Below are positions 13,779-32,451 of a DNA stretch of 64,000 nt, one piece after another (position 1 is the first letter of the stretch; each line of letters begins with the position of its first letter). Both the position numbers and the translations under genes were made by a program. The notes beneath the pieces were generated by a model. The model saw nothing but the letters and a program-made list of their open reading frames with translations, searched no databases and was not told the DNA's origin. The stretch comes from a virus. Lineage: Duplodnaviria; Caudoviricetes. The DNA lies in IMG/VR virus record IMGVR_UViG_3300021400_000262, positions 1 to 64,000 of that record, one strand, 5' to 3'.

Positions 13779-14438
13779 TATGGCCCCCCCGATTTGTTTT
13801 CCTTCTACTTACTATGAATTTTATTACTATATAAAAAATCTACTTTGTCCAAACAGGAAAAAATTTTCGTTCGGCGGTCCGCATTTATATATTAGGTGTT
13901 TCTGCGCCGCGGGCGTTATTATTGTTACCCCCTATTATTATAGTATAAAAAATTTATAAAGTCAATGGTTCTGCGCGACGACCGCCAGTTGCAATAGAAA
14001 GATCGGCATATGCGATCTCCGCCCGTTGCGGCCGCGCCGAGTTGTTTGAAAGGACTACCGAGCGGAGCGAGGAGACCCTATTTTCGGGAAAAATAAGAGC
14101 ATATGAGGGGGCCGCAGTTGCACTCGAAAAAAAGCCATATGGGGGTTTTTGCTGAAACTCGGCGCCTAACTGACGTCAGCGCGCCGTCAAACTTTAGTCC
14201 TTTAAAGCGTAACGCTTCAACGCGATGAGGCTCCGCCCGGGCGCAAAAATGAGGATTATTTATCCTCATCATCGCAAACATAATCATCATCTCGATCCCA
14301 AAAATAAGCGAAATCATCGCATTCATCAATGGGATCTGCATCAGGATACATTGTACAACATCCATCAGCACCAAAATAAGGGCAATCCCAAGCATTTGCA
14401 GGACAATAAATTTTTCCCATGTTATTTACCTCTCTTTC

Positions 14439-14690
14439 TTACCAAGTTGCAACGACAATCCAATTTTTAAGGCTACTTTTCCAGCCCTTATTCTGATATA
14501 AAACTCTGTGGTGCTGAGTATCAATACACCATTTCTGCATTTCTGCGGTTTCGGGATTAAATTTATCTCCATGCACGATAAAGAATCCTTCCGCAGTACA
14601 TTCAACTTTTGTAAAATTTTTTGGAATTACTGCTTGCACTTCTTCAAGGCTCATAGCCGCTAAAAAATCTTCCATGTCTCCGCTATACAT
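14439..14690 (-). CDS. hypothetical protein
   Basis: ORF track. Confidence 0.65.
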   Translation of the reverse strand: MYSGDMEDFLAAMSLEEVQAVIPKNFTKVECTAEGFFIVHGDKFNPETAEMQKWCIDTQHHRVLYQNKGWKSSLKNWIVVATW

Positions 14691-14692
14691 TT

Positions 14693-14941
14693 TTAACCCC
14701 CTAAATAAAGATTGATAAAATACAGATTTAAAATCACGCTTGCAAAATGCATCACAATTCCGTTGATGTGTCTATCGGAAGTGAAATCCTTGATAAGTCC
14801 AAAGACAGCAACAGCAAGCCCAAACCAAGCGACCGAAAGACCAAACCGCATAATTAATAAAACATTTATAACAGTGATAATAGCTCGAAGGTCATTCCAT
14901 TCAAACTCATAAGCTTTTTCAATCTTGAAAAAATCTCTCAT
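14693..14941 (-). CDS. small membrane protein
   Basis: Three hydrophobic segments. Confidence 0.7.
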   Translation of the reverse strand: MRDFFKIEKAYEFEWNDLRAIITVINVLLIMRFGLSVAWFGLAVAVFGLIKDFTSDRHINGIVMHFASVILNLYFINLYLGG

Positions 14942-15342
14942 TTTTATTTTTCCTCACACTTCTCTGTAAAAATACAAACTTCAGTATCTTCCGACCATTT
15001 TTCCCAAGCAATGTCAACGGCTTCATCTTCTGTTTTAGCTTCAATCTCTTCTTCAAGGTATTTTTCAATAATGATTTTGTATTTCATTTATTTATCCTCT
15101 TTTTCTTCCGTAATGAAATAATCTATTACGTTATGGCTTGATGCACGAAACATACTTTCCGCCTTAAGTTCTGCCTCATAATCAGTTTCAGCAACTACCT
15201 CGTATTCTATACACACAGTAACCAAGTACTTCTTCATTTTTTTTATCTCCTTTCTTTTTGTAATCTTATTATAACAAAAGATTTTTAATTTGTCAATAGT
15301 TTTTAAAAAAAATTTTTTCGCCCGGGCGCCAAGGGCATGAGG

Positions 15343-15987
15343 TCAGTTAGACCACACACCCTTTTCACAATTTGCATTTTTCGCCATACAAGCCTTAAAA
15401 ATTTCCTTCTCAATCAGCACATCCGCAAGCCCTGTGTGCGCTTCCTCAAAATCATTCTTTCCGCTAATGTATCTATAAAGGATTTCAGCGGTCAGCCGAG
15501 GCGAACCATTTTTTAAAGTATAACCATTTTCAGCGCAGAAAGCCTTGTAATCTTCATCATGCCCGAAGGTCTGTCTTGCCATCTTTAAGGTGTCCCAAAG
15601 TTCAACCCCATAAGGATAAAACCATCTGTCCGCAGACTTTGTAATGTATCTTTGTGAACGAGTACAAGACTTATAATCGAATCTCATGTTGTGCGCCATA
15701 ATTGCGCCAACCTTAAAAAATTTGCAATCCTTGCGAAGAACCTTCTTTACATTTTTAAACCAAGCCATTTTCCGCACACCATCCGCAACATCTTTCACAT
15801 ACTGCGGAATTTTATCAGCGAAAAATGCTTCTTTCATCAGTTCTTCATCACAGAACACATCTGCAACTACATAAGAACGAGTTTTCAGCACCTCACCTTC
15901 ATCATTGATTACCGCCCATCCGCAATCATAGACCATAGGGTCATCAAATCCATTAGTGGTTTCCGTATCAATAACAATATAATTCAT
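15343..15987 (-). CDS. DEDDh 3'-5' exonuclease
   Basis: IDTET (ExoI), AHNMRFD (ExoII), AHTGLADV (ExoIII). Confidence 0.88.
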   Translation of the reverse strand: MNYIVIDTETTNGFDDPMVYDCGWAVINDEGEVLKTRSYVVADVFCDEELMKEAFFADKIPQYVKDVADGVRKMAWFKNVKKVLRKDCKFFKVGAIMAHNMRFDYKSCTRSQRYITKSADRWFYPYGVELWDTLKMARQTFGHDEDYKAFCAENGYTLKNGSPRLTAEILYRYISGKNDFEEAHTGLADVLIEKEIFKACMAKNANCEKGVWSN

Positions 15988-16333
15988 GTTCTTAGTTTGA
16001 CCTCTCTTTCATTTGATAGCTTTATTATAACAGATTTTATATTTTTTGTCAATAGTTTATTTTGCTAAAACAAGAGCAATAATAAAAGTAATGACAAGAA
16101 TAAGAATACAAGATACTAAAGATACAGGATTCGGAAATATTTTATTTACAATAGCGAAAAGTAATACCAGCCACCACGCAATAGCCTTAAAGAAATACAA
16201 CATTTATTTTTCCCTCTCTTTCTTTTGGTAGCTTAATTATAACAGATTCCTATTAAAAAGTCAAGCTTTTTTGCAAAATTTTTGCAAAAAATCGCCCGGG
16301 CGCGCAAAAAAGCCCCACTTTAGGGGCTTTTTC

Positions 16334-16711
16334 TCAACTTTTTGGCGGTCTATGTTTCACCAAATTGATAGAATACTCATTTTTTCCCACTTTTAAGGTG
16401 ATTTCACGCTCTTTTTTAGCAATTTCTACGCAATAATCAGCATTTTCAGCTAAAAATTCCGCAATTTTTGCGATAATCTCAGCTTTTTCATCGTCAGGCT
16501 TGCGCTCACGCTTCGTAAAAGTATAAGTGCGCTTTCCAGTCTTGCGAGCGTCTTTTGTAGCCTTTTTCTGCTCTTCGGTCAAGTCCGCAGTCAACTCCTT
16601 CATTGACATTCTGTCAGTATCTGCATCGTCCATGATAACAGAGATAGCGTCCTCACGAGAGCAATCATACTTTGCCATGTATTCTGCAACTACCTTTTCA
16701 TCAATCTTCAT
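16334..16711 (-). CDS. hypothetical protein, paralog of 25385..25762
   Basis: Shared SREDAI..I..D...DRM and EREI motifs. Confidence 0.75.
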   Translation of the reverse strand: MKIDEKVVAEYMAKYDCSREDAISVIMDDADTDRMSMKELTADLTEEQKKATKDARKTGKRTYTFTKRERKPDDEKAEIIAKIAEFLAENADYCVEIAKKEREITLKVGKNEYSINLVKHRPPKS

Positions 16712-16820
16712 TTTGGTATCACCTCTCTTTCTGTATCTATACTATAACATAGAACGAAAAGAAAGTCAATAGTTTTTAATAGTTAATTTTTTGACAAAGC
16801 GCCCGGGCCAAAGTTGGGGC

Positions 16821-17294
16821 TTAACCCCAACCATTAACCTTGAAATAATGTCTTAATGCATCACAACACAATCTGTTTACTCGATTAACCCAAGATACAT
16901 GATTAACCATGTATTCCAAAGCCCACTTTGTAGCTTCTTCCTCTATTGGAAGATTAAAATAAGCATCGTTAATTTCTTTTGGGTCTTTTTCACAAAAACT
17001 TAAAAGTTTTCTAATAATTATCTCATTGTCAATTTCTTCTTCTGTAAAGTTTCTTAACGTATAGTGATGCCCAATCTCATGAAGAATACAGAAGGTAAAA
17101 TAGCTACTTCTCACATCAATGCCAAAAGTTTTGTCAATGTATTCGCAATGCGCTCTTGACAACCTATCCCAAAAGTAAGGAGTAAAAGATACCACGCTAT
17201 TGCTATACTCAAACCTCTCTCCGCAATAAGCGACAATTCCAAAATCTTTAAACAGCTTGTTAATCTTTCTTTCAAGAACCATCATTCCCTTCAT
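16821..17294 (-). CDS. HEXXH zinc metallopeptidase-like protein
   Basis: ILHEIGHH and downstream EEEA. Confidence 0.65.
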   Translation of the reverse strand: MKGMMVLERKINKLFKDFGIVAYCGERFEYSNSVVSFTPYFWDRLSRAHCEYIDKTFGIDVRSSYFTFCILHEIGHHYTLRNFTEEEIDNEIIIRKLLSFCEKDPKEINDAYFNLPIEEEATKWALEYMVNHVSWVNRVNRLCCDALRHYFKVNGWG

Positions 17295-17449
17295 TTCTTC
17301 TTACCTCTCTTTCTATTGAAGATTATAACACAAGATGGTTTATTTGTCAAGAGTTTTTTGAAAAAAGTTTGCGGCCCGGGCGACCCCCAAGGCAACTAGA
17401 CCTTGGGGGCGACCAAAGAGAGAAAGGAGATCGAAAAAAGTCAGTAAAA

Positions 17450-17541
17450 TGGGGGGATGGGACTTGCACCCATCTTCCCAAGAATTATGTAGGGGCTATT
17501 ATGCAAATTACCTACCACTTGGGCTTCACTATAAACCCCCC
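17450..17541 (-). ncRNA. tRNA-like element lacking D stem and anticodon
   Basis: GGGGGG/CCCCCC-A acceptor-like stem; ATGGG-TGCAAGT-CCCAT T arm; internal CCCAAG/CTTGGG and GTAGG/CCTAC helices. Confidence 0.45.
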
Positions 17542-17570
17542 AAAGGGGGAGGGGCAAAAGCCCCTCAACA

Positions 17571-17912
17571 TCACGCCTTGGAGAAGTAAGCCTTGCGCTT
17601 CACTTCCTCACGGACAAGCAGACCATCAAGCTGCATCTGCCGAACGAGAGCGGAAACCCTCTGATTAGAAAGCTCACTCACCGCAGGAACAGCCTTCATA
17701 ATCTCGGTGATGGTATACTTGCCATCCCCGATACCCTCAAGGATTGCATCCTTAAAACCAGCGTTTTCCTTCTGCGTAGCAGTAGGCTTCCGCTCACCGC
17801 TTGACTTCTTAGCGAGCTGTGCCTTGAGAGCAGTCAGCTTATCAGCAACCTCACCCTCACCAACAGCCTTGATAGCAACATCCAGAGCAACAGCATAAGT
17901 CATCTTCGTCAT
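17571..17912 (-). CDS. winged-helix protein, MTKMTYA family copy 1
   Basis: KPTATQKEN linker; TITEIM..SNQRVSALVRQM..G...R...KRKAYF wHTH. Confidence 0.8.
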   Translation of the reverse strand: MTKMTYAVALDVAIKAVGEGEVADKLTALKAQLAKKSSGERKPTATQKENAGFKDAILEGIGDGKYTITEIMKAVPAVSELSNQRVSALVRQMQLDGLLVREEVKRKAYFSKA

Positions 17913-18093
17913 AATTAGCACCTCTTTCTTTTTTTTTGATTGATTTGTTTTTCTTATCTTGTGCCTTTATTATAGCACCCTTTTTTGTTTCTGTCAAGTA
18001 GTTTCTAAGATTTTTTTTCTTTTCTAAGACCCTCTCATTTTGTTTACCTCTTTTCTTATCTTGTGCCTTTATTATAGCAGATGTTTAATTGTT

Positions 18094-18166
18094 TGTCAAG
18101 AGGTTTTTGAAAAATATTGAAAAGTTTTTTAAAGCTCTTACAACTGTTTCTCATCTCCTCTTGACA
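18094..18166 (-). ncRNA. closed-stem sRNA cassette A
   Basis: Own promoter; UGUCAAGAGG...CCUCUUGACA terminal stem; no ORF. Confidence 0.55.
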
Positions 18167-18195
18167 TTTACAATTATAACACCATTTAAGAAGTT

Positions 18196-18299
18196 TGTCA
18201 AGGGGTTTCGAAGAATTTTTAGTCCGACTATTTATTCCTCTCGGACGGAAGCTTCACCGCCCTCGGACGTTGGTACGTCACTTCCGTACCCCCTTGACA
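18196..18299 (-). ncRNA. closed-stem sRNA cassette B
   Basis: Own promoter; UGUCAAGGGG...CCCCUUGACA; internal ACGGAAG/CUUCCGU and GACGU/ACGUC helices. Confidence 0.6.
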
Positions 18300-18605
18300 C
18301 TTATAAGTATAGCAGATTTTGGGAAAATTACAAGCCGTAATATTACACAAATAATTGCGGAAAAAATTAGTGAAAGTGCCTATTGACAAAAATAGGGCGC
18401 GCCTGGACCATGCGCGCCCGGCCGCAAATAAAAAAAGGAGATTATTCAATCTCCCTCTTGGAAATAATAAAAATCATTTTTGATACATTCACTTGCGAAA
18501 AAGCAAAGTTCATTTTCATGACACAATTCACAATGCTGGCACAAGTGGCTGTGTTTAATAACTTCAATTAAGAAATCATTCAGCTCTTTTTCTTTTTCTT
18601 TCTTT

Positions 18606-18851
18606 TCAGCAGTCATAAGTAAATTCTCCTACATACGGATCGAATCCGCAATCATCATCAATGTTATCGGGTTCAAAATCATAGTCACAAAAATTTTCAT
18701 TATCATACTGCATCAGAAAAATTTTGCTTCCTTCATGCTGTGCGGACAGCTCTCGTGCTTCCTCAAGGCTCGTGCAAGGAACACCTGCGAAAGAACCATC
18801 TTCCTTAACTACTGCGTAAAGCTCATCGAACCAATCAAAATCTCTTGCCAT
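18606..18851 (-). CDS. acidic hypothetical protein
   Basis: ORF track; C-terminal GFDPY.G.FTYDC. Confidence 0.7.
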   Translation of the reverse strand: MARDFDWFDELYAVVKEDGSFAGVPCTSLEEARELSAQHEGSKIFLMQYDNENFCDYDFEPDNIDDDCGFDPYVGEFTYDC

Positions 18852-18856
18852 TTCTT

Positions 18857-19033
18857 TTATCTCCTCTCTGTTGGAATCTCAAATTCTTCGGGTGTAAGTC
18901 CAGCTGAACTTTCCATAATGTAATCACAGTAATTTCCAAAAGGACATTCAGCACATTTTGCCCATTCAGTATTTTCTCCGCACGCTTCTTTTAAAAGAGT
19001 CATAGCAGTAATTATCTTTTCTTTCCAATCCAT
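18857..19033 (-). CDS. small Cys-rich protein
   Basis: Start MDWKEK after RBS; C..CPF...C. Confidence 0.65.
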   Translation of the reverse strand: MDWKEKIITAMTLLKEACGENTEWAKCAECPFGNYCDYIMESSAGLTPEEFEIPTERR

Positions 19034-19135
19034 TGTATTTTCTCCTCTCTCTTGATGGTTTAAGTATACCATAGGTGAGATTATTTGTCAATACTTTTTT
19101 GAAAAATTTTTGCGGCGGCCCGGGCAAAAGGCGGT

Positions 19136-19375
19136 TTAATCCGCCTCTCCTTCCACCAGTCTACCGAACAGCGCGCAAGTATATTTCCATTTATCATCAT
19201 TTTCAGCGATGAATTCATAATCTTTTTTTGAGAGGGGGTCAGGAATTCCGCCCATGATCCAGATCCAAGTCGTCCAGATTTCTTCATCCCCTAATCCAAT
19301 AATGTATTCAGTCATCTTCTTGAGTATCTTTATCCGTATCTGAACTAACTCCTTGTGAGTTATAATTACACTCAT
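19136..19375 (-). CDS. hypothetical protein
   Basis: ORF track, RBS. Confidence 0.65.
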   Translation of the reverse strand: MSVIITHKELVQIRIKILKKMTEYIIGLGDEEIWTTWIWIMGGIPDPLSKKDYEFIAENDDKWKYTCALFGRLVEGEAD

Positions 19376-19554
19376 TTTAATTCCTCCTTCTGGATTTCAC
19401 GCTGAAGTAAAAACTTGCCAATTCTTCTTGCTTTTCTTCTGAATCTTTTTTCGAGCTTATTTCTTGAGGGAGTGTGATAAACAACGTGCCTACAATTTAA
19501 ATCCCAACAAGTTAAATCGAAAGTTGTCAGTCTTTTAAAATAATCTTTAGTCAT
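19372..19554 (-). CDS. basic hypothetical protein
   Basis: Start MTKDYF after RBS. Confidence 0.6.
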   Translation of the reverse strand: MTKDYFKRLTTFDLTCWDLNCRHVVYHTPSRNKLEKRFRRKARRIGKFLLQREIQKEELK

Positions 19555-19686
19555 TTCTTTATCTCTCCTTTCTTGACTAAAGTATAACACATTTCCTTTT
19601 GGTTGTCAAGCACTTTTTTGCCCCGGGCAGAATCTGCGGGGAGAAAGGAGTTAGCCCGCAGATTCTTAGAAGAAAGGAAAACAAAC

Positions 19687-19759
19687 TCCGCCGAACGAGA
19701 TTCGAACTCGCGACTTACTGATTAAAAGTCAGTTACTCTACCAACTGAGTTATCGGCGG
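19687..19759 (-). tRNA. tRNA-Lys(TTT)
   Basis: CCGCCGA/TCGGCGG-A acceptor; ACTGA-CT TTT AA-TCAGT anticodon arm; GCGAG-TTCGAAT-CTCGT T arm. Confidence 0.93.
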
Positions 19760-20208
19760 TTAAGCGGACATTAGAGGAGTCCGCACCCTTCGTTTACGCA
19801 AACTGGCTTTTTCGGTTTTTCTTAACATGATAAACCTGTGGTAGCTTACACCTTACGATTTTAAAAATCCGACTCTTTCACCCATTTTTTCTTTCTTGCT
19901 GAAAAGGCTTAGTGTAGAATAGCCGTCACTTGCCAAAGTCGTGAAGCGTTTTACGTCCTCTCTTTAACTGACAAAGTTATTATAACATGGTTTTACATTT
20001 TTGTCAAGTATCTTTTTCATTTTTTTTCGGGAAGCGGTGGGTGGCCAGCTCCACCGCTTGTTTTCAATCTGTCCGCCATAGGGCGTATCTATCCCTACCT
20101 ACCACATTTTTGTCATCGCGCGCAAGGTCTCGCGCTTTCATCTAAAGTCCCATACTTGATTACCTCTCTTTCATCTTGTGGCTTTATTATAACACTCTTT
20201 TGGAAGTT

Positions 20209-20295
20209 TGTCAAGGGGTTTTTCAAAAATTTTTGAAAAATCGTAATCTTGTCGAACCTATTCTTCGAGGAGAGTTTCACTCCGTCCCCCTGACA
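20209..20295 (-). ncRNA. closed-stem sRNA cassette C
   Basis: Own promoter; UGUCAGGGGG...CCCCUUGACA with a G-U pair. Confidence 0.55.
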
Positions 20296-20401
20296 TTTAT
20301 TATTCTATCATAGCTCCTTTAAAAAGTCAACTACTTTTTAAAAAAATCTTTTGTTAGTTTTTTAACAAGCTAGCCCGGGCCAAAAAGCGCCGAAGCGCTT
20401 T

Positions 20402-20653
20402 TTAATTTTCCCATACAGGATTTCCTTCTTCGTCTAAAACTGAAGAAATTTCTGCATTTGCTTTATGCCAAAGAGATTTATTAAACTGCTTTGTCATAGC
20501 CTCTTCTATTGGTTCCCAAGTTTGAGGAGCAACAAGTTTAGCAAAATTTTCTCCAACAGTTAAATGAGATTTTCCTTTACAAGCTTTTAAAAAATCTTCA
20601 TTTGAAATTGGCACATCAAACTGGACATTGTAACAAACAGTAATTTTCTTCAT
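20402..20653 (-). CDS. hypothetical protein
   Basis: ORF track, RBS. Confidence 0.7.
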   Translation of the reverse strand: MKKITVCYNVQFDVPISNEDFLKACKGKSHLTVGENFAKLVAPQTWEPIEEAMTKQFNKSLWHKANAEISSVLDEEGNPVWEN

Positions 20654-20677
20654 CGTTTTTTTATCCCCCTTTTTTAT

Positions 20678-20989
20678 TTAATGATTAAATCTAATGTAAT
20701 GTTTAAACCAATTTTCTCCGAAGTATTCAATAAATTCTTTTTCATACTCTGGATAATTTTCAAGAACAGAAAGCTTCATGATTGTATCATGGTCAAGAAT
20801 TGTCCCCCAATCATTAGCTTTTTCTTCGCAACCCTTTGTAAATACAAAGTTGGTTAAAAGGGTGTCCATTGTTTTAGCGTTCTGAATAACTTCCATTGCT
20901 TCAGAAAGCCAAACAATCTGAGAACAAAAAATAGGGATAATGTTAAAATCAGATACTCTGGTTCCGCTCATTTTCGGTTCAAATTTCAT
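20678..20989 (-). CDS. hypothetical protein
   Basis: ORF track, own promoter. Confidence 0.7.
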   Translation of the reverse strand: MKFEPKMSGTRVSDFNIIPIFCSQIVWLSEAMEVIQNAKTMDTLLTNFVFTKGCEEKANDWGTILDHDTIMKLSVLENYPEYEKEFIEYFGENWFKHYIRFNH

Positions 20990-21087
20990 TGTATTATCTC
21001 CTTTCGATGGTTTAAGTATACCACGTTAAAGGTTGTTTGTCAATAGTTTTTTTAAAAAGTTTGCGGCTGCCCGGGGCAAAAAGAGGA

Positions 21088-21345
21088 TTACTCTTCTTCT
21101 GCTCCATCGTATTCAAAATAGGGGGATTCTGTTACGGTTTCAGACCAATCCGCAAGGCTTTTATCCTGTAAGTCTCCGACCCAATTCCAGAAAATTTCTT
21201 TTGCTTCTTCCTTCGTTTTTGCTTTTACTCGAACACATCCTAAAAAGTCAACAGCAAAAGTTTTTTTCTTTCTCATTTCTTTTACAAGATTTGCACACGC
21301 TTCTTCTTCTTCTTTTGTTAAAAGGTATCCTTTAATTTCTGCCAT
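21088..21345 (-). CDS. hypothetical protein
   Basis: Start MAEIKG; own promoter. Confidence 0.7.
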   Translation of the reverse strand: MAEIKGYLLTKEEEEACANLVKEMRKKKTFAVDFLGCVRVKAKTKEEAKEIFWNWVGDLQDKSLADWSETVTESPYFEYDGAEEE

Positions 21346-21477
21346 TTCTTTTTCCCTTTCTTTTTTTTCTTTCTTTTGATAAATCAATTATAATATACTT
21401 TCTTCTATTTGTCAATACTTTTTTCAAAAAATTTTTGCCCGGGCAAAAGCCCCCGAAGGGGCAAGCCCTTGGGGGCA

Positions 21478-21816
21478 TCAGCCCCCAATAGCCTTGAAGT
21501 AGGTGATACGCTTCTCGACCACCTTCTCGACCTTGCCATCATCAGCAAGCTGATTAACAAGTGCCGAAGCCTTCTGACCGCTAATGTCAAAATGCTTTGC
21601 TACATCACCTGCACGCTGTGCGCCATTCTCTGCGATGAAAGCAAGGATGGTTTCTTTCAGCTCTGCATTTTCCTTCTGAGTCTTAGTGGGCTTATGCTCA
21701 CCGCTGTTACGCTTTGCGAGCTGAACCTTGAGAGCCTCAAGCTTCTCACGAACCTCATCAGTGATGTTGCCATTAAGAGCGTTGTCGATTGCTACTGCGT
21801 AAGTCATCTTCGTCAT
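21478..21816 (-). CDS. winged-helix protein, MTKMTYA family copy 2
   Basis: KPTKTQKEN; RAGDVAKHFDISGQKASALVNQL..GKV wHTH. Confidence 0.8.
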   Translation of the reverse strand: MTKMTYAVAIDNALNGNITDEVREKLEALKVQLAKRNSGEHKPTKTQKENAELKETILAFIAENGAQRAGDVAKHFDISGQKASALVNQLADDGKVEKVVEKRITYFKAIGG

Positions 21817-22099
21817 TGTGTTTACCATTCCTTTCATTTTTAAGATTTTGTTTTTTTTCTTATCTTGTGCCTTTATTATAGCACTTCTTTATTCAGTTGT
21901 CAAGCTTTTTTTTTAATTTTTTTTGAGAAGTTGGAAGTTTGACTTCTCACCTTGCTCGTACTCATAGCGCCCCATGACTTCCGAGCTTTGGCGCCAATGG
22001 TCTTGCGACCTTTCCTGTTTTAAGTTTCCTTCGGCGGGTCTCTCATGTTCTCACCTCTCTCTCATCTTGTACCCTTATTATAACAGATGCTTTGGAGTT

Positions 22100-22182
22100 T
22101 GTCAAGGGGTTTTTTCAAATTTCTTTGATTATTTTTTTTCGAGGGCCATTAGGTTCTTGACCTCTTACCTCTCCCCTTGACA
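22100..22182 (-). ncRNA. closed-stem sRNA cassette D
   Basis: Own promoter; UGUCAAGGGG...CCCCUUGACA. Confidence 0.55.
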
Positions 22183-22270
22183 GTTATTATAATACCACAG
22201 ACCACAGAAAAAGTCAACACTTTTTTAAAAGTTATTTTTTTAACAAGTGGCGCCCGGGCGAAAAGCAAGA

Positions 22271-22714
22271 TTACTCTTGCTTCACCTCAATAACGATAGT
22301 CTTACAACTCATTTTACCCCATCCATAACTATAATATTCACTACTATAAACATTTACTTTGAAACAATGGGAATGTAAATAATCTACAAACTCTTCCCAA
22401 GCATAATTTTCTCCAATAGCGCTATAGGAAAGAGTTCCATCAGCGTATTTAGCGCCATCGGGTTTAACAAATTTAAATAACTTGTTTCCGAGTCGATCTA
22501 TTTCAAACTGAATCTGTGTCGTATACTCAATTTTTTTACGACTATACGCACAAGCAGTAAGTGCCTCATCTAAAATAGTATCACAAAACTCAATACTTCT
22601 TGCAGCTGCCGCTTTATAATATTTTCTTGCAATTTCGTCTTTTTCTGCTTCTTCTTTTTCCCACAGAATATCTGCTTCTTTCCTAACCATTGCTAATTCA
22701 AGCGCACATTTCAT
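22271..22714 (-). CDS. hypothetical protein
   Basis: ORF track, own promoter. Confidence 0.75.
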   Translation of the reverse strand: MKCALELAMVRKEADILWEKEEAEKDEIARKYYKAAAARSIEFCDTILDEALTACAYSRKKIEYTTQIQFEIDRLGNKLFKFVKPDGAKYADGTLSYSAIGENYAWEEFVDYLHSHCFKVNVYSSEYYSYGWGKMSCKTIVIEVKQE

Positions 22715-22838
22715 TTTTTTTACCCTCTTTCTTTTTTATTTTTTCTATTCCTTACATTTATTATTATAGCAGATTAAAAATAAAAGTCAACTACTTTTTA
22801 AAAGTTATTTTTTTAACAAGCGGCGCCCGGGCGAATAT

Positions 22839-23405
22839 TTAAGCGAGAGAAGTCCCGCTTAAATATTCGTTTACAACTTTATTAAATGTTCTTGTTGGAA
22901 TATCCACTCCAAAAAATCTATCATTTTTGCAAAAAGCTTCGGGATGCTTTCTAATAAAGAAAGCTCTTGTTACAGATTCCGCTCCTTCCGCAGGAATTGC
23001 TCCACAATCAATTACTGAACAAATTTCTGCATGGTCTATTACAATTCCATGATTAGTGTAGTATTTAATTTCTTCTTTAAGTCTCTGTTCAGGCAGTCTG
23101 GTTGTAGTTCCAACCTTTGAACAAATTAATTTTTCAGCTTCATAAAACTTATACAAATAAACTAACTGCTTTCCACCTTGTAAAACTTTTTTAACTTTCT
23201 GAGTCACATGGTAAAAAGTCTTTTTTGCAGTTTCTAATAATTCTGAATACTTTTTAATGTAAGTCTTGATAGTAGAAACTGCATAATCTGTCCATTTTGC
23301 AATTTCTTCGGGTGTAAATCCGTAGTCATTAAGATATACAAGCTGAAGTCTTTTTAACTGAGTTTCTTCAAATTTCTGAAATACATCAATTTTCTTTGTT
23401 GCCAT
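22839..23405 (-). CDS. HTH plus GIY-YIG-like domain protein
   Basis: TPEEIAKWTDYAVSTIKTY HTH; VYLYKF...SKVGTT...EQRL pattern. Confidence 0.55.
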   Translation of the reverse strand: MATKKIDVFQKFEETQLKRLQLVYLNDYGFTPEEIAKWTDYAVSTIKTYIKKYSELLETAKKTFYHVTQKVKKVLQGGKQLVYLYKFYEAEKLICSKVGTTTRLPEQRLKEEIKYYTNHGIVIDHAEICSVIDCGAIPAEGAESVTRAFFIRKHPEAFCKNDRFFGVDIPTRTFNKVVNEYLSGTSLA

Positions 23406-23520
23406 TGTTTTTAGCCTTCCTTTCTGTTGATGGTTTAATTATAACAGAAGGATTAGAATTTGTCAATGACTTTTTTATAATTTTTGAAAATTTTTTGGCC
23501 CGGGCGAAACATGAAGACCT

Positions 23521-23703
23521 TTAAAATGTCTTCATGTATTCTTCAAATTTATCAAGAAATTTACTTTCTTCCCAATAGAATGGGTCTCCGCACTCACTGA
23601 AAAAATTATACATCAGCTGACCAAAGCGCCAATCAGGACACTTATCTTTCCAATAGGAGCCAATAGTTTCAAGGAAAAAATCAATTCTTTCAGGATCTCT
23701 CAT
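23521..23703 (-). CDS. small hypothetical phage protein
   Basis: MRDPERI...W...PDWRFGQL. Confidence 0.75.
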   Translation of the reverse strand: MRDPERIDFFLETIGSYWKDKCPDWRFGQLMYNFFSECGDPFYWEESKFLDKFEEYMKTF

Positions 23704-23705
23704 CT

Positions 23706-23960
23706 TTAGTACGCCTCTCTATAATAATATTTAATCATGTTTAAAATCTGTTCTGCGGTGATGTCAAAGTCCCCAAAATCAAAATCTGGATTGTTGTCAA
23801 TCTTAATCAGTCTCTTAAAATCTGTTTCGATTCTGTCCACTATATCACGAATCTTCTGATTTTTTCTTCTTTCCATGACACATTTAATTGCTTTGGTAGC
23901 TTCGATTAACTCTTCATCAGTCCAATCATTTAATCCTTCAAAATCCACATTAGTCATCAT
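23706..23960 (-). CDS. hypothetical protein
   Basis: ORF track. Confidence 0.7.
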   Translation of the reverse strand: MMTNVDFEGLNDWTDEELIEATKAIKCVMERRKNQKIRDIVDRIETDFKRLIKIDNNPDFDFGDFDITAEQILNMIKYYYREAY

Positions 23961-24099
23961 TTTTTTTATTCCTTTCTTTTTTTTTGTATCTTTATTATAA
24001 CAAAATATTTTTTATTTGTCAATAGTTATCTTTAAGAATTTTTTTGCCCGGGCAAAGCCCCAAGGCTCCCAAAGGAGCCAAGGGGCTTTTGTTTTGGAA

Positions 24100-24447
24100 T
24101 CAAGCGAGGCTGAAATAAGCCTTACGCTTGATTTCCTCACGCTTAAGGATTCCGTCCAACTGCATCTGACGCACAAGTGCGCTCACACGCTGATTGGAAA
24201 GCTCCCCAACCTCGGGGACAGTCTTCATGATTTCAGTGATGGTATAAGCCTTTCCAGACTCCATCCCATTCACAATAGCTTCCTTGAAGCCGACATTTTC
24301 CTTCTGAGTAGCGGTAGGCTTCCGCTCTCCAGAACTCTTCTTTGCAAGCTGAGTCTTAAGAGCCTTAAGCTTCTCAATCACTTCCTCATTGTCGATAGCG
24401 TTGATAGCGAAGTCAATAGCAGTTGCGTAGGTAAGCTTGTTAGTCAT
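24100..24447 (-). CDS. winged-helix protein, MTKMTYA family copy 3
   Basis: Near-identical to 17571..17912 over the C-terminal two thirds; start MTNKLTYA after RBS. Confidence 0.8.
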   Translation of the reverse strand: MTNKLTYATAIDFAINAIDNEEVIEKLKALKTQLAKKSSGERKPTATQKENVGFKEAIVNGMESGKAYTITEIMKTVPEVGELSNQRVSALVRQMQLDGILKREEIKRKAYFSLA

Positions 24448-24524
24448 AAATTTGCACCTCTTTCTTTTTTGATTGATTTGTTTTTGTTTCTTACAGTAGT
24501 TATTATAACCGATATTTAGTTGTT

Positions 24525-24633
24525 TGTCAAGAGGTTTTTTCAAGATTTTTATTTGTTGGGGAAGTGGAAGCTGTGCTTACCGCGGATGCACATTTCTCAC
24601 TTTCTGAACTTCATCTCTGTCATCCCCCTGACA
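24525..24633 (-). ncRNA. closed-stem sRNA cassette E
   Basis: Own promoter; UGUCAGGGGG...CCUCUUGACA with two G-U pairs; internal AAGUG/CACUU and UGUGC/GCACA helices. Confidence 0.55.
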
Positions 24634-24728
24634 GTTATTATAATACCACAGACCAGAAAGAAAGTCAACACTTTTTTTATTTTTTTTCTTGTTAGTTTTT
24701 TAACAAGCGGCCCGGGCAAAAGGGGTTT

Positions 24729-24959
24729 TCACCCCTCTGCCGAATAAATTACTTTCATGTCACAATCTGTAATAAATTTTAAAACCAAATCATTATGACA
24801 GAAAGGACATACAACCGCATCATAGTATTCCCCATGTCCTACCATTACATCCCGCAAATCTTCATCATTACAAGTAAACACAGTATGGCAATGCTTGCAA
24901 GTAATTTCATACTTAGGAAGGCTTTTTCTACAATAACCCTTTTTAATAATCTTAATCAT
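24729..24959 (-). CDS. Zn-ribbon protein
   Basis: CKHC...CPFC. Confidence 0.7.
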   Translation of the reverse strand: MIKIIKKGYCRKSLPKYEITCKHCHTVFTCNDEDLRDVMVGHGEYYDAVVCPFCHNDLVLKFITDCDMKVIYSAEG

Positions 24960-25077
24960 GTTTTTAGCTCCTTTCTTTTGTTAATGCTATTATAGCAAAC
25001 AAAGAAGAAAAAATCAATAGTTTTTTTAAGTTAAATTTTTAACAATTTCGCATCCGGGCAAAAAAGAAGACAAGGAT

Positions 25078-25281
25078 TCAATCCTTGTCTTCAAGTCCAG
25101 CTTCCAAGATAATTTCGCCAGTATTTAAATCAATAACTGTAGCTGTATCAAAGCCATAAATTTTCATAGCATTGATAATTTCCGCTTTTAATTCATCAAT
25201 AGTTCCGACCTTATCATACTTAAACTGCCCATCAAAAAGAATCGTTGCGTCAATACGAGTTTCATAAGTAAAACAAATCAT
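25078..25281 (-). CDS. hypothetical protein
   Basis: ORF track; IDLNTGEI motif. Confidence 0.65.
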   Translation of the reverse strand: MICFTYETRIDATILFDGQFKYDKVGTIDELKAEIINAMKIYGFDTATVIDLNTGEIILEAGLEDKD

Positions 25282-25384
25282 TTTTATTACCTCTCTTTCT
25301 TTTTTGTAAGTTCATTATAACTCGTTCCAAAAGAAAAGTCAAGTAGTTTTTAAAAAAATATTTGCGGCCCGGGCAATCCCCGCA

Positions 25385-25762
25385 TTAACTGCGGGGAGCG
25401 GAAAGCACAACCTTGTATTTTACATTATTGAATTTAAAAATCATTTCTCGTTCAATATTTGTTATCTCAATGTCAGTTCCGCCGACCGCTTCAACGGAAG
25501 CCCGCAAGTTTTCAATCAGATTTCTTTTGTCTGGATTTTCTTTCTTTGGTCTTTTGGAAGTATCAAATTTAAAAACTGTTTTCTTTCTATCTGCTTTTCG
25601 AGCTTCTTTTGCGTTCTGAATCTGCTCTTTACTCAAATCAGAATTGATTTCTGAGGCTGATGTCATTCGATCAATTCTTTCATCCTCGTTAATTAAATTG
25701 ATTGCATCTTCTCTACTGAGTCCTAAAATTTCCATGTGTTTCTTAATTAAACTCTCATTCAT
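25385..25762 (-). CDS. hypothetical protein, paralog of 16334..16711
   Basis: Shared motifs with 16334..16711. Confidence 0.75.
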   Translation of the reverse strand: MNESLIKKHMEILGLSREDAINLINEDERIDRMTSASEINSDLSKEQIQNAKEARKADRKKTVFKFDTSKRPKKENPDKRNLIENLRASVEAVGGTDIEITNIEREMIFKFNNVKYKVVLSAPRS

Positions 25763-25837
25763 TTATTATCCCCCTTTCTGTTTATTATTATACCACAATA
25801 AACAGAAATGTCAAGTGAAATTTTGCCCGGGCGCCCC

Positions 25838-26272
25838 TTAGAAAGCTCTAAGGGTTGCCAAAATGTTATTTGCATCGAAAGAATTTTTTCCCCATTCGAT
25901 TCTATTATTTAATTCATCATCGAAAAGGAAACCATTTTTATCTTTTACAACTGTGCTTTTCGGCGTTCCGTAGGAAACGATGTGAATTTCATCCCAAACC
26001 ACCGAAGGCAGATGCTTTTTCAGCCAATTCATTTTGCTCTCTGTGACTGCCTTGTTATATTCTTCTGTTCCACTTTTGGAAAGCCAAGAAACAATTCCAA
26101 AAGTGAAACCAATTTTCTGCATTTTATGAATTTGTCTTGCGAAAACCGAAAAGTTGATTAAAGGCTTCGCTTCATCGTAAGGGCGAGTATTGCCATTGAT
26201 TAAATCATTAAGCCAGTTTTTTACGCCATACAGATTAGCGATTGTTCCGTCCATGTCAAAATAGATAGTCAT
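25838..26272 (-). CDS. HAD-family 5'(3')-nucleotidase-like protein
   Basis: FDMDGTIA motif I; K..WL.KHLP; LFDD. Confidence 0.8.
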   Translation of the reverse strand: MTIYFDMDGTIANLYGVKNWLNDLINGNTRPYDEAKPLINFSVFARQIHKMQKIGFTFGIVSWLSKSGTEEYNKAVTESKMNWLKKHLPSVVWDEIHIVSYGTPKSTVVKDKNGFLFDDELNNRIEWGKNSFDANNILATLRAF

Positions 26273-26414
26273 TTGTTCTTTCCTCTCTCTTGTTTGTATA
26301 GACATTATAACCGATTATCGCTAATTTGTCAAGTAGTTTTTTATTTTTTGTAAATAAATTATAATAAAAATTTTTTAAAAAATCAAGTGCGGCCGCGCGC
26401 CCGGGCAAAAAAAT

Positions 26415-26446
26415 AAAGGGGAATCATCTTTTGAATGATTCCCCTA
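26415..26446 (-). terminator. intrinsic terminator
   Basis: GGGGAATCAT/ATGATTCCCC hairpin plus U-tract. Confidence 0.75.
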
Positions 26447-26593
26447 AATGAATTTCCGCAGTTCTTTTTTAAGAGCTTTGCGGTCATAATCTTTCTTGCT
26501 CTTATGTGTCCGAGTGCCAGTATTAAATGATACTAAGACACGCAGTTTTTTAGCTTCTTCTTTCTGAATTTTTTTACTTCTTTTATCTACCAT
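26444..26593 (-). CDS. small basic protein (49 aa) ending in TAG
   Basis: MVDKRSKKIQKEEAKKLRVLVSFNTGTRTHKSKKDYDRKALKKELRKFI; own promoter and RBS; terminator immediately after. Confidence 0.7.
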   Translation of the reverse strand: MVDKRSKKIQKEEAKKLRVLVSFNTGTRTHKSKKDYDRKALKKELRKFI

Positions 26594-26755
26594 GATTCTC
26601 TCCTTTCTTTTCTATTGGAATTATAGCATACAAAGAAATAATTGTCAAGTGTTTTTTATCCGGGTAAAAAAGGACTTTTTACTTTTCCTAAGCCCTTCAC
26701 AAATCTTTACACTAAGTGAAAAACCTGTACTTTTCAAAAGTCCCTCTGTGTACCT

Positions 26756-27049
26756 TTATTGATTATGCTTTTTTGATAAGCTTAATTTAATAATTTCGTC
26801 ATCAGTAACTGAATGAGTGTGATTGTCAAAAAAGACCATACTTACAACGTCTCCTTCGCCATATGTATCACTTTCATAAAACCAGATATGTCCTCTCACA
26901 TCCTCGATAGTAAGCGTTTCATTCTGCTTATGTAATACAGTTCCTTGCATATTGTAAGTAGATTCAAGGTATCCTGCCCATCCCATGATGGTAAAAAGAG
27001 ATAATATCGCAACGATTCCCCACAGTATCCGCTCAACTTTTCGTACCAT
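26756..27049 (-). CDS. membrane-anchored small OB-like protein
   Basis: N-terminal TM segment; start MVRKVER. Confidence 0.65.
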   Translation of the reverse strand: MVRKVERILWGIVAILSLFTIMGWAGYLESTYNMQGTVLHKQNETLTIEDVRGHIWFYESDTYGEGDVVSMVFFDNHTHSVTDDEIIKLSLSKKHNQ

Positions 27050-27119
27050 TTTTTTGTCCCCTTTCATCGTTTCCTTTATTATAACATATCTTTTTCTTTT
27101 TGTCAACTACTTTTTAATC

Positions 27120-27581
27120 TTATTTTGCAAGATTGGCAAGGCTCTTTTCATTGCAGAACGTGGCTTTCTGAAACTTAATCTGATAAGAAGTACCGTTAAT
27201 TTCAAGGTCGCCTGCTTCAGTAAAGGGAACGTTGTCTTTTTCCCAGACCTGCCCGAACTTTTCGGTAATAAGCTTTTCAAAGATTTCCCCATTATTGTAC
27301 TTGCTTTCCTGTACCTGCTCATTAAAGAACTTTTCAGAACAAAGGATAGAAGCATAAGGCATAAGGGCGATTTTCTGATCAGCATTGGGGCAGAAACGGA
27401 GCGCATAGCCTGCGCCACGGCTTGCCTTATCCAGAGTGCAAACAAAAGGCATCATTGCTTTATCAGTGAAAGCCATATATACGTTATGATGATAAGTGAA
27501 TCCCCAGATATACTGATGAGTGTATGCATTGGCGTTGTAGCGGTTAATCATGTTGAAAAAAAGTGCGGTGTTGGTAGTCAT
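27120..27581 (-). CDS. hypothetical protein (PD-(D/E)XK-like C-terminus), related to 28093..28563
   Basis: N.GE.FE....E.FG..W.KD...GD....YQIK. Confidence 0.7.
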   Translation of the reverse strand: MTTNTALFFNMINRYNANAYTHQYIWGFTYHHNVYMAFTDKAMMPFVCTLDKASRGAGYALRFCPNADQKIALMPYASILCSEKFFNEQVQESKYNNGEIFEKLITEKFGQVWEKDNVPFTEAGDLEINGTSYQIKFQKATFCNEKSLANLAK

Positions 27582-27710
27582 CTTTGTGTTCCCCTTTCTT
27601 TATCTTACACTGAGATTATACCATACCGCACCGGAGCTGTCAAGCACTTTTTAAAAGTTATTTTTTTAACAAAATCACGATTTTTCAAAATGGACGAAAT
27701 AGCGTTAGTG

Positions 27711-27802
27711 CTTTAACGCGCTAAAGTGCCAATTCTGGGAAAAAGCGCTTTAGTACTTTAGCGCGCGAAAGCGTTTAAAAAATTTGCTTTAGCACGTTAA
27801 AG
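27711..27802. repeat. three 16-bp CTTTA-N6-TAAAG palindromes
   Basis: CTTTAACGCGCTAAAG, CTTTAGCGCGCGAAAG, CTTTAGCACGTTAAAG; related copies at 14192 and 14215. Confidence 0.75.
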
Positions 27803-27861
27803 CGAAAAACCGGCCGCTTGGACTGCGAGCGGCCGGCCCGCAATAAAAAAAAGATTTGGGA

Positions 27862-28023
27862 TCAGTCCCAAATCTCAGGGTCAAGTGCCATAGTCCAGTT
27901 GTAAAGCAGTTCCACAGCCTTTTCAGTATGCCACTTCTCGCAAGCCGTAGCAAAGCGGATAGTGTACTTATGCTCAAATCCCCACTTGTTGATAACCTCG
28001 GTAAGCATCTCATCTCTCGTCAT
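27862..28023 (-). CDS. small protein, (W/Y)GFEH family
   Basis: MTRDEMLTEVINKWGFEHKYTIRFA; own promoter and RBS; not in the track. Confidence 0.65.
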   Translation of the reverse strand: MTRDEMLTEVINKWGFEHKYTIRFATACEKWHTEKAVELLYNWTMALDPEIWD

Positions 28024-28092
28024 TGTTTTTTATCTCCTTTCCTTTTCTGTACTTAGAGTATAACATACTCTGTCCGGCTTGTCAATACTTTT

Positions 28093-28563
28093 TTAAAGAT
28101 TATTTTCAAACCATGCAATCATTTTTCCGCTTGTCGCTTTGCATCTTACAACATTTCTTTCATTTAATGCGGTGAACGTGTAAAGGAATCTTTTAAACTC
28201 TGTCTTGTTCATGATGTAAAGAGTTGCCATGTTCTCAATAACAATAGTATAAATCCATGTAGTGCTATGAGCAGTTTTAAAGTATCTATCAACAGTTTCT
28301 TCAAAAGTATCCGCAAGCTGCATGTTTACAAGAGTAAACTTACTGGATTTTACACTTGCCTTAATTTCCGGAATGTCGCTGTTAACATCGTAAGAAGTGT
28401 TAGCATCCTTTTTCGGCTCAAATCCTAAAACTGACTTTGCGATGATTTCCGCAAACTCACCGCCATTGCACCACTTATGCCCGCCATCAAAGCTATAGTT
28501 AGAACCCTTGTGAGTGGTATCAAAAATGTAGTTAATTTTGACTTCAGCGGTGATTTTCTTCAT
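28093..28563 (-). CDS. hypothetical protein, related to 27120..27581
   Basis: NGGEFAE...LG...KD....SD.....SVK. Confidence 0.7.
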   Translation of the reverse strand: MKKITAEVKINYIFDTTHKGSNYSFDGGHKWCNGGEFAEIIAKSVLGFEPKKDANTSYDVNSDIPEIKASVKSSKFTLVNMQLADTFEETVDRYFKTAHSTTWIYTIVIENMATLYIMNKTEFKRFLYTFTALNERNVVRCKATSGKMIAWFENNL

Positions 28564-28738
28564 TATTGTGTTCCCCTTTCCTTATCTCTGACTTAATTAT
28601 AAGGGATAATCCGGGAAAATGCAATACTGGAAAATTGCACAAATTTTCGCTGAAAAAATTGTTAAAACTGCTACTTGACAAAATTCCGGCCGGGTCGCTA
28701 GTGCGCGGCCGGCTTAAAAAAAGAAGATGGGGAGCTTT

Positions 28739-28909
28739 TTACTCCTCATCCTCAAATTCGAAAGCCAGTCCGAATTCTTCATGGCTCTCGACGATGGTCC
28801 GCAGGGTTTCATCGCTGGCCCCCCGCTCCATCAGTTCCGCAAACTGGATTACTGCGGGATGCTCGAAGCCGTAAAGGTGAATCATTCTGTTCAGATACTC
28901 TTCTTTCAT
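28739..28909 (-). CDS. small protein, (W/Y)GFEH family
   Basis: MKEEYLNRMIHLYGFEHPAVIQFA; own promoter and RBS. Confidence 0.65.
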   Translation of the reverse strand: MKEEYLNRMIHLYGFEHPAVIQFAELMERGASDETLRTIVESHEEFGLAFEFEDEE

Positions 28910-28963
28910 TTTTTTAGCTCCTTTCTTTTGGTATCTTTAGTATAGCATGAACCGGGCTTTTTG

Positions 28964-29245
28964 TCAATTCCTTTTTTTAATTTCTTTTTCCCAATCACAG
29001 CGATACCCAAAAATAAAACTTCTTCTTTTTTTGAAATACTTCCGATAGAGATAGCTAAAAAGATTGATAAAAGCGACCTGAATAGGAGTTTCTTCCTTGT
29101 TCTGAATAAGAAGCCTTACTGCATCTGGTGCGCATCCATAATTTAAAGCTGACTTAGGATTGCGAATTGCTCGAGGACTGTAAAAATAATAATAATGATA
29201 AGTATCGTTAAAATCAATCGTTGTAAGTTCATAGTATCCGCTCAT
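28964..29245 (-). CDS. hypothetical protein
   Basis: ORF track, own promoter. Confidence 0.6.
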   Translation of the reverse strand: MSGYYELTTIDFNDTYHYYYFYSPRAIRNPKSALNYGCAPDAVRLLIQNKEETPIQVAFINLFSYLYRKYFKKRRSFIFGYRCDWEKEIKKRN

Positions 29246-29327
29246 GTTCTTTACCTCTCTTTCTATTGGTATTATAGCAAAGTTTTAATTATTTGTCAAT
29301 CAGTATTTTTGCCCGGACAAAAAGAGC

Positions 29328-29762
29328 TTAAAGCTCGTGAAGGACTGTAAAAATCATGCTTTCATTAAAAGCCTTTCCTTTCCAGTTATTGCGATTCTTT
29401 TCTTCATCATCAAACAGGATTCCAGTCCCAAGCGTTTCTTTCGGAGTTCCATAAGCAACGATGCTGATGTTATCCCAATGAACAGAAGGAAGATGCTTTG
29501 CAAGCCAAGCCTTTTTCGTTGCGATTACTTCTGCGTTATACTCTGCGCTCCCATCCTTAGAAAGCCAGCTAATAACATTGATTTTGTGTCCTTCTCTTTG
29601 TAATCTGTTAAGGATTCTTGCCAGTGCGGAAAGCCGAACCAACGGCTTTGCTTCTGCGTAAGGTCTGACGCTCTCGTTAATGAGGTCCTCAAGCCAGTTC
29701 TTTACTCCGTAAAGGTCGGCAATCGTTCCATCCATGTCGAAGTTGATGTTAAGTCTTTCCAT
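29328..29762 (-). CDS. HAD-family 5'(3')-nucleotidase-like protein, paralog of 25838..26272
   Basis: FDMDGTIADLYGVKNWL...KHLPSV.WD...LFDD. Confidence 0.8.
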   Translation of the reverse strand: MERLNINFDMDGTIADLYGVKNWLEDLINESVRPYAEAKPLVRLSALARILNRLQREGHKINVISWLSKDGSAEYNAEVIATKKAWLAKHLPSVHWDNISIVAYGTPKETLGTGILFDDEEKNRNNWKGKAFNESMIFTVLHEL

Positions 29763-29822
29763 TCTGTGCGCCTTTCTTTCTCTCTCTTTCTGACTATAGT
29801 ATAGCAGATACTGGCTTATTTG

Positions 29823-32363: not shown

Positions 32364-32451
32364 TTTCTGTTCTCCTCTCTTGTTTGTACCTTTATTATAG
32401 CCGATGTTTCCCAGTTTGTCAAGCGTTTTTTTTGGTATTTCAAGAAGTAAA

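Follow-up and report, generated by a model that had tools for sequence, protein, structure and literature searches.

What does an invariant 8-bp palindrome do at the joints between the small early genes of a phage: is it a point of exchange, part of a terminator, or a mark that is read by a protein? The question is raised by the first 64 kb (positions 1 to 64,000, referred to below as the window) of the 110,034-bp IMG/VR virus record IMGVR_UViG_3300021400_000262, a Caudoviricetes sequence of a large uncultured rumen phage with a CheckV completeness of 61%, in which the all-GC word GCCCGGGC recurs along an array of early genes on the - strand. A first-pass annotation of this DNA had proposed that the word is either a crossover core for the shuffling of cassettes or the operator of a phage regulator. 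The explanation that we consider best, with a probability of roughly 0.55, is that GCCCGGGC is a dyad-symmetric double-stranded DNA site of a dimeric, sequence-specific protein, carried by junctions of the early block that resemble the promoter-early stem-loop (PeSL) elements of T4-type phages.

The first-pass count of about 16 exact copies plus variants was accurate. There are 16 exact copies in the window, all within 14235-26406, as compared to a mean of 0.13 and a maximum of 2 in dinucleotide shuffles, and no further copy occurs anywhere in the record, including the late module, for which the annotation had also reported none. In the direction of the - strand, each copy is preceded at a distance of 0-9 nt by a stable hairpin, which in most cases has a short T run, and 15 of the 16 copies are positioned 11-66 nt upstream of a TTGACA-17-TATAAT promoter (13 of these at 21-42 nt). 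This is the place, between the end of one cassette and the next -35 box, that had been assigned to the motif, and the terminal copy at 14235 had rightly been singled out as an exception. Variants with one mismatch at 18416, 19621, 21069 and 29311 occupy equivalent junction positions. The hairpins of the junctions in the window are unrelated in sequence, and the 8-mer alone is common to them. The array and its copies are as follows.

14235-26406, - strand: sub-array with the motif, comprising about 16 terminated early transcription units with GCCCGGGC at the boundary of each
14235-14242: terminal GCCCGGGC, after the last hairpin, with no promoter beyond
15320-15327: GCCCGGGC, with the -35 box at 15296 lying 23 nt downstream
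16294-16301: GCCCGGGC between a canonical terminator and the promoter at 16264
16801-16808: GCCCGGGC, at the end of homology with the nearest relative, G001
17374-17381: GCCCGGGC after a hairpin without a T run
19118-19125: GCCCGGGC
20373-20380: GCCCGGGC at the head of a type-B promoter module
21437-21444: GCCCGGGC
22252-22259: GCCCGGGC, at the edge of the direct repeat 22175-22262
22825-22832: GCCCGGGC, at the edge of the direct repeat 22750-22835
23498-23505: GCCCGGGC, with the homology to G001 switching off exactly at the motif
24046-24053: GCCCGGGC; the orthologous site in G001 has decayed to GTCCGGGC
24710-24717: GCCCGGGC; a strain-level replacement block begins 4 nt away
25367-25374: GCCCGGGC; G001 has an extra cassette here, with a repeat of about 45 bp on its flanks
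25825-25832: GCCCGGGC, with the -35 box just 11 nt away
26399-26406: first GCCCGGGC in the direction of transcription, with GCGGCCGC adjoining

GCGGCCGC is another 8-bp GC palindrome, which directly precedes the first motif copy on the + strand (26389-26406).

The same word is used in other phages. A scan of viral contigs with a pattern that combined motif and promoter gave at least 117 stretches from dozens of 20-240-kb contigs, and in complete genomes GCCCGGGC is again limited to one block, with 18 copies in G002, 51 in G004 and 31 in G005. Among the matches listed, 401 copies could be oriented, and the figures on hairpins and flanks given here refer to these. Their flanks are dyad-symmetric as well: A is found at position -1 in 3% and T at position +1 in 3%, and positions -2 and +2 mirror each other. 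The extended repeats that surround the invariant core differ from lineage to lineage, and the downstream spacers fall into 152 distinct sequence classes, with the 8-mer constant throughout. It is present even in G003 and G005, the portal proteins of which are only 28-31% identical to that of the window. The sister genomes G006, G011, G018 and G020, with portals 59-61% identical to that of the window, possess the same dense promoter arrays with zero or one motif copy, and an equivalent palindrome was looked for in these four genomes and not found. Since the sisters keep their promoter arrays without the 8-mer, it must be a separable layer instead of a part of promoter or terminator function as such.

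A second palindrome, GGCCGGCC, occupies the same slot in a different set of phages. As a word it occurs at background level in the 27 relatives, and it forms arrays in other viral contigs of 125-181 kb, with a hairpin upstream and a median distance of 30 nt to the -35 box. When all 16 GC-only 8-bp palindromes were counted in both sets of loci, the usage of the two words turned out to be nearly exclusive, and the remaining 14 were at background.

Loci retrieved with GCCCGGGC: 512 copies of GCCCGGGC, 19 of GGCCGGCC, and 46 at most of any other palindrome
Loci retrieved with GGCCGGCC: 18 copies of GCCCGGGC, 293 of GGCCGGCC, and 46 at most of any other palindrome

A symmetric exchange at positions 2 and 7 distinguishes the two words, which have the CCGG centre in common, and GGCCGGCC has symmetric flanks of its own (C at -2 in 65%, G at +2 in 64%).

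The shared core also recurs inside promoters. The promoter array is larger than the motif array: on the - strand, about 41 TTGACA-17-TATAAT promoters with at most one mismatch, or 46 with at most two, are distributed over 13965-34205, and those in the 26.6-34.2 kb part lack the 8-mer. In 9 of 48 window promoters, all located in 27.6-34.2 kb, the 17-nt spacer between -35 and -10 contains CCGG, CCCGG or CCGGGC (0.6 expected, P 1e-8).

26600-34230, - strand: second sub-array, about 21 consensus promoters, mostly without hairpins, without the 8-mer
27643, 28085, 28967, 30085, 30335, 31291, 32747, 33446, 33936 and 34205, - strand: ten promoters with the core in the spacer, including 9 at no more than one mismatch, without an upstream 8-mer

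Promoters of this class were also found in G001 (8/41), G002 (5/50), G012 (9/35) and G021 (5/28), which together with the window gives 36 of 202; the four motif-less sisters have one in 201. The spacer core and the upstream 8-mer almost never occur at the same promoter. CCGG outside the motif and its variants is scarce in 13900-26500, with 2 copies as compared to about 14 expected, and is at expectation in the late region.

It is on account of the symmetric flanks, the separability of the layer, the existence of a second palindrome type and the co-variation of CCGG in promoter spacers with the presence of the 8-mer that we favour a dimeric DNA-binding protein as the reader of GCCCGGGC. The joint itself is PeSL-like, in that a hairpin closing one unit is followed by an AT-rich, UP-like tract and a near-consensus sigma-70 promoter opening the next, and GCCCGGGC is an extra layer on this joint, which would be read by a protein encoded by the phage or by its host. 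Bound between hairpin and UP tract, such a protein would most plausibly insulate or co-regulate the units; it could block read-through polymerase, or it could modulate or shut off the adjacent early promoter. With the same core in the -35/-10 spacer of the second promoter class, it would act as on a classical operator. The operator proposal of the first-pass annotation is thereby favoured as regards the site; the regulator was not found, and it need not be encoded by the phage.

Several observations weigh against this explanation. The retrieval pattern demanded a promoter, due to which the association of motif and promoter in relatives is partly ascertainment and inflated, the hairpin and flank statistics being unaffected. 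The distance between motif and promoter is loose, and helical phasing of the motif relative to the -35 box, with a raw amplitude of 0.23, became marginal (p ~0.04) after collapse to the 152 distinct spacers and is not established. An orthologous site may decay by one base with the junction kept, so that single sites are dispensable. In the distant motif-bearing phages G003 and G005, none of the promoter spacers carries CCGG. Finally, a contrast of gene contents between the motif-bearing genomes G000, G001, G002, G003 and G005 and four motif-less complete genomes, based on open reading frames (ORFs), identified no binding protein; it yielded a single real family, fam16, which is absent from the motif-rich complete genome G004 (51 copies) and from G012, and yet is present in the palindrome-less G011.

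27120-27581, - strand: fam16, a 153-aa protein of orphan fold that adjoins the array
21478-21816, - strand: fam0, a winged-helix paralogue and candidate DNA-binding protein; the others are at 17571-17912 and 24100-24447

It is nevertheless worthwhile to consider fam16 as a possible reader. More than 1,000 unannotated homologues exist, with invariant N96, G98, E102, D125 and K136, and the family resides in the early arrays of very distant phages with either palindrome type. Among the genomes searched with profiles, the four complete ones with GGCCGGCC all have it, as do most of those with GCCCGGGC. Its AlphaFold2 model is of high confidence (predicted local distance difference test 97, predicted template-modelling score 0.90), but no structural neighbour was found in the PDB (Foldseek E >0.3; best VIA Z 3.2), and sequence searches gave no match in Pfam or the PDB. 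The pattern E..D..(Q/S)xK had suggested a PD-(D/E)xK nuclease, an assignment that was dropped in view of these results. An obligate partnership with the palindrome is ruled out by the absence from G004 and G012, a marginal match in G021 and the presence in G011, which has no alternative palindrome either, and the fam16 tree tracks palindrome type only partly. The family is thus a frequent resident of the arrays and the sole candidate for the reader, not an established one. The fam0 proteins were rejected for this role, as they are present in motif-less genomes, have no match in G003 and G005, and follow clade instead of motif in their distribution.

A more far-reaching version of the protein-binding explanation, tentative and to our judgement clearly on the doubtful side, is that the palindromes belong, as its cis half, to a dedicated punctuation system of the phage. 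The reader would be a dimer that evolves fast, with fam16 as one candidate. It would dock at each boundary between units and within the promoters of the second class, by which it would insulate and jointly switch dozens of early units, and its specificity could flip symmetrically from GCCCGGGC to GGCCGGCC.

The alternative that survives best, unlikely as it is, requires no specific protein: the motif may be part of the terminator, or a GC clamp that slows down polymerase or confines the melting of the UP tract. Its coupling to the hairpin is indeed tight, with the 3' end of the hairpin 0-6 nt from the motif in 85% of the copies and a mean minimum free energy of -12.3 kcal/mol for the 45 nt upstream as compared to -4.0 downstream. 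Furthermore, in the window the motif is restricted to the hairpin-bearing sub-array, and the terminal copy has a hairpin and no promoter. However, in 62% of the copies two or fewer T residues are present in the 8 nt preceding the motif, from which it follows that many of the junction hairpins are not canonical intrinsic terminators; a GC-rich RNA-DNA hybrid at the point of release would disfavour intrinsic termination. The canonical terminators at about 27876 and 31740 lack GCCCGGGC, and the sister genomes manage without it. A clamp also needs neither an invariant word nor a palindrome, whereas both words are palindromic with symmetric flanks.

The possibility of a site-specific recombination core, integron-like or derived from target-site duplication, at which a dedicated recombinase or transposase cuts GCCCGGGC to insert or excise units, was in its integron-like form one of the two proposals of the first-pass annotation, and is improbable in the light of how the cassettes turn over. 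That they do turn over was confirmed. G001 is collinear with the window, with a late module that is 85% identical and an early array that is a patchwork in which whole motif-bounded units have been gained, lost or replaced, and the abrupt loss of homology at the 23498 motif is what a crossover core would predict. Of 187 homology blocks to other phages, 44 end no more than 3 nt from the motif at the edge that faces the hairpin (null 0.9%), none at the opposite side, and just 6 span the motif. Such one-sidedness (44 versus 0) would result simply from the conserved part of a promoter module ending with the motif, and it identifies the motif as the sharp 5' edge of a conserved module that extends from promoter to gene. 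The block ends could thus reflect functional conservation next to a fast-evolving hairpin, and nothing more. The cassette specific to G001 is flanked by a direct repeat of about 45 bp, consisting of the same hairpin, the motif and cgcaa, instead of by 8 bp.

Natural strains were inspected in assembled contigs from four ruminant-gut runs, none of which is marked as the possible source of the record, with joints having a side shorter than 30 nt ignored as repeat artefacts. Three events were detected: loss of the orf147 unit in strains from sheep gut by a precise deletion of 573 bp (22208 to 22782, with 255-nt flanks), a swap of promoter modules (16029/22160 and 22207/16255), and a 134-to-139-nt replacement comprising the 3' end of a gene and its hairpin, which starts 4 nt from the motif at 24710 and would suit a recombination core. 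The deletion joins two direct repeats of about 88 bp that end at the motif.

22175-22262: first copy of a repeated promoter module; its recombination with the second copy removes the orf147 unit
22750-22835: second copy of this promoter module

The crossover of this deletion, the sole one that could be placed, is within a stretch of 10 identical nt at the -35 boxes, inside the repeat and about 40 nt from the 8-mer. The mechanism of turnover that is observed is therefore homologous recombination between repeated promoter modules of about 88 bp, which is PeSL behaviour and not site-specific exchange at an 8-bp core. The comparison with relatives that had been recommended in the first-pass annotation thus supports cassette turnover and ends of homology at the motif, but not the motif as the place of the crossover.

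What the array has in common with integrons is that small gene units stand in a row, with a hairpin-containing boundary element after each. Integron cassettes, however, are promoterless and depend on a common Pc, whereas every unit in the window has its own consensus promoter. Their attC sites are imperfect palindromes of 57-141 nt that are recombined as folded single strands by IntI, which is not seen here. An integrase domain was absent from the 20 array proteins and 10 others covered by a partial scan of this 61% complete genome, no dedicated recombinase turned up in that scan, and no attC-like structure was found. In view of the promoters within the units, these negative searches and the recombination between repeated modules, the array is not considered integron-like.

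About equally improbable is a restriction-modification-type target, recognized by a methyltransferase or by a rare-cutting or nicking endonuclease from phage or host, through which epigenetic control or programmed breaks that start recombination would be brought about. The two words, GC palindromes of 8 bp that are both centred on CCGG, represent two discrete specificity types, and both are known 8-bp restriction specificities (SrfI and FseI). The patchy distribution over lineages would also suit a mobile or host-linked determinant. Against this, no methyltransferase or nuclease was found that co-occurs with the motif, and fam16 has no nuclease-like structural neighbour at the scores given above. 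Phages normally avoid restriction sites, which are enriched here, and CCGG is not depleted elsewhere in the genome.

That GCCCGGGC is a functionless hitch-hiker, the conserved 5' edge of a promoter module spread by duplication and horizontal transfer, is the least probable alternative: it would suit homology blocks that start at the motif, promoter modules that are repeated and recombine, and cassette genes common to distant phages, but a neutral edge would decay as its surroundings do, whereas the 8-mer is constant next to 152 downstream spacer classes, forms an identical core within lineage-specific extended repeats, has symmetric flanks and has a counterpart in a second palindrome.

How much of this is new? 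The PeSL cassettes of the hyperplastic regions of T4-type phages (Arbiol et al. 2010, PMC2839356; Comeau et al. 2014, PMC4122927) are based on conserved composite promoter/stem-loop elements of about 100 bp, with crossovers in the AT-rich or promoter part (PMC2839356). Both systems occupy an early-gene region crowded with small ORFans. The intergenic composite has the same parts in the two: a sigma-70 consensus promoter with an AT-rich tract, a stem-loop rich in GC that serves for termination or attenuation, and a Shine-Dalgarno sequence with the start codon. Units are deleted, inserted or replaced in each of them through recombination of repeats of about 100 bp, with the crossover inside the promoter module, and a GC-rich symmetric element can be situated upstream of the promoter or within it. 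The window accordingly contains an early hyperplastic region, a composite with a sigma-70 promoter, a GC-rich stem-loop that is a predicted terminator, and recombining repeats of about 88 bp. It differs in lineage, as PeSLs were defined in T4-like myoviruses of Gram-negative hosts and the phage studied here is unrelated to T4, has a Firmicutes-type host and is TAG-recoded. It also differs in the GC element, which is a loop-less perfect 8-bp palindrome that is separate from the variable hairpin and invariant across deeply divergent phages, with two exclusive specificity types. The array thus works like a PeSL array and is not a member of that group by descent. To call it an undescribed system, as the first-pass annotation did, is too strong, since the architecture is known; new is the palindrome layer, consisting of two exclusive symmetric words and the spacer-embedded class. 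A literature search for GCCCGGGC in combination with phage gave no paper that describes the motif.

Two further systems invite comparison. Morons of lambdoid phages, a topic also of PMC2839356, are single genes that bring their own promoter and terminator, as the units of the window do; they are solitary and without conserved flanks, whereas the window has dozens in one orientation with conserved junctions. The stoperators of Cluster A mycobacteriophages and the 17-bp dyad repeats of Cluster O are short protein-binding words, and dozens of copies of a short word at gene boundaries within one phage genome are what they have in common with GCCCGGGC, for which binding is predicted. Stoperators, however, are asymmetric and oriented words that are spread over the whole genome of temperate phages, where the immunity repressor binds them, whereas the word in the window is palindromic, confined to the early array and without a known repressor.

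The setting of the palindrome can be described as follows. Genes in 13.9-35 kb run on the - strand, and about 57 small ORFs, Pfam hits being found in few of them, are present on a single strand in 13-35.6 kb. These early genes require no TAG recoding; late ORFs become longer, reaching 2,874 aa, when TAG is read as Gln. The first gene of the late module is sigma-like, and terminase and portal come next. A host of the Firmicutes type is indicated by a choline-binding endolysin, by promoters with an extended -10 and by strong ribosome-binding sites with AGGAG. A megablast search against 50,697 phage records gave no nucleotide match for the window. When bacterial genomes were scanned, true GCCCGGGC arrays appeared solely on phage-like contigs binned into metagenome-assembled genomes of Acutalibacteraceae or 'Eubacterium', which is a weak hint at the host, and the idea that host chromosomes use GCCCGGGC was dropped for the same reason. 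The region is best explained as an early, hyperplastic gene block that depends on host RNA polymerase, in a TAG-recoded phage of gut Clostridia. In several palindrome-bearing phages (G003, G028, G029, G030 and G032; portal loci L212 and L484-L488) the portal gene has no in-frame TAG, so that arrays and palindromes are not tied to TAG recoding.

The cassettes are self-contained, as had been noted from the sequence, each comprising a UP-like AT tract, a consensus promoter, an AGGAG ribosome-binding site and an ORF or tRNA-Lys. In most array promoters the -10 box is extended by TG, A/T tracts lie upstream, and AGGAG precedes the ATG. The products of the units are tiny proteins, among them the fam0 winged-helix proteins, NT5C-like nucleotidases, a SLOG/DprA-like protein and many ORFans. 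The reported non-adjacent paralogues are indeed present (three of fam0; two each of fam1, fam2 and fam3). In 26.6-34.2 kb, most promoters come immediately after the end of the gene before them.

Some further features of the array deserve mention. In the unit 19630-20370 a tRNA-Lys(UUU) gene (19687-19759) replaces the protein gene, at a place that in G001 is occupied by a fam0 unit. The regions 17960-18210, 20160-20340, 22060-22230 and 24500-24680 are marked by tandem consensus promoters spaced by about 102 bp (17997, 18099 and 18201) and by type-B promoter modules. The latter drive short TGTCAAGGGGAG-type leaders immediately upstream of a second promoter and the fam0 winged-helix genes, and these leaders may constitute a small-RNA or attenuator layer. 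A single perfect consensus promoter on the + strand (30513-30541) points against the array, and beside it a cluster of GC-rich hairpins (30550-30605) contains the variants TCCCGGGC and GCCCGCGC. L204, L205 and L206 contain a separate family of GC-only hairpins in which one palindrome supplies both arms (GGCGCGCC, 9-12 nt, GGCGCGCC); ahead of some promoters, these hairpins are followed by boxes of the TTGTGCAA type. GC-rich elements similar to this hairpin family are present at the distal end of the array in the window (about 13900-13916 and 14165-14200). In the motif-less relatives L204 (G006), L206 (G011) and L207 (G018), many -35 hexamers lie inside a GGGG...CCCC inverted repeat, as in ggggg TTGACA aaaccccc, an arrangement reminiscent of the poly-G/poly-C stem-loops in T4-type PeSLs.

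Such arrays take up 10-20% of the genome in large uncultured phages of gut and rumen, and a function is known for almost none of the encoded proteins. A conserved, symmetric and type-switchable boundary mark would give a handle on how these phages organize the takeover of their hosts. It would also offer a ready system in which to test how strong promoters are insulated from each other's transcription in Firmicutes, and a marker by which the flow of cassettes between unrelated phages can be traced. PeSL-style modular shuffling outside the T4-like phages widens a mechanism that so far was documented in a single lineage. If the tentatively proposed punctuation system is real, the flip between GCCCGGGC and GGCCGGCC would create incompatible regulatory dialects among co-infecting rumen phages.

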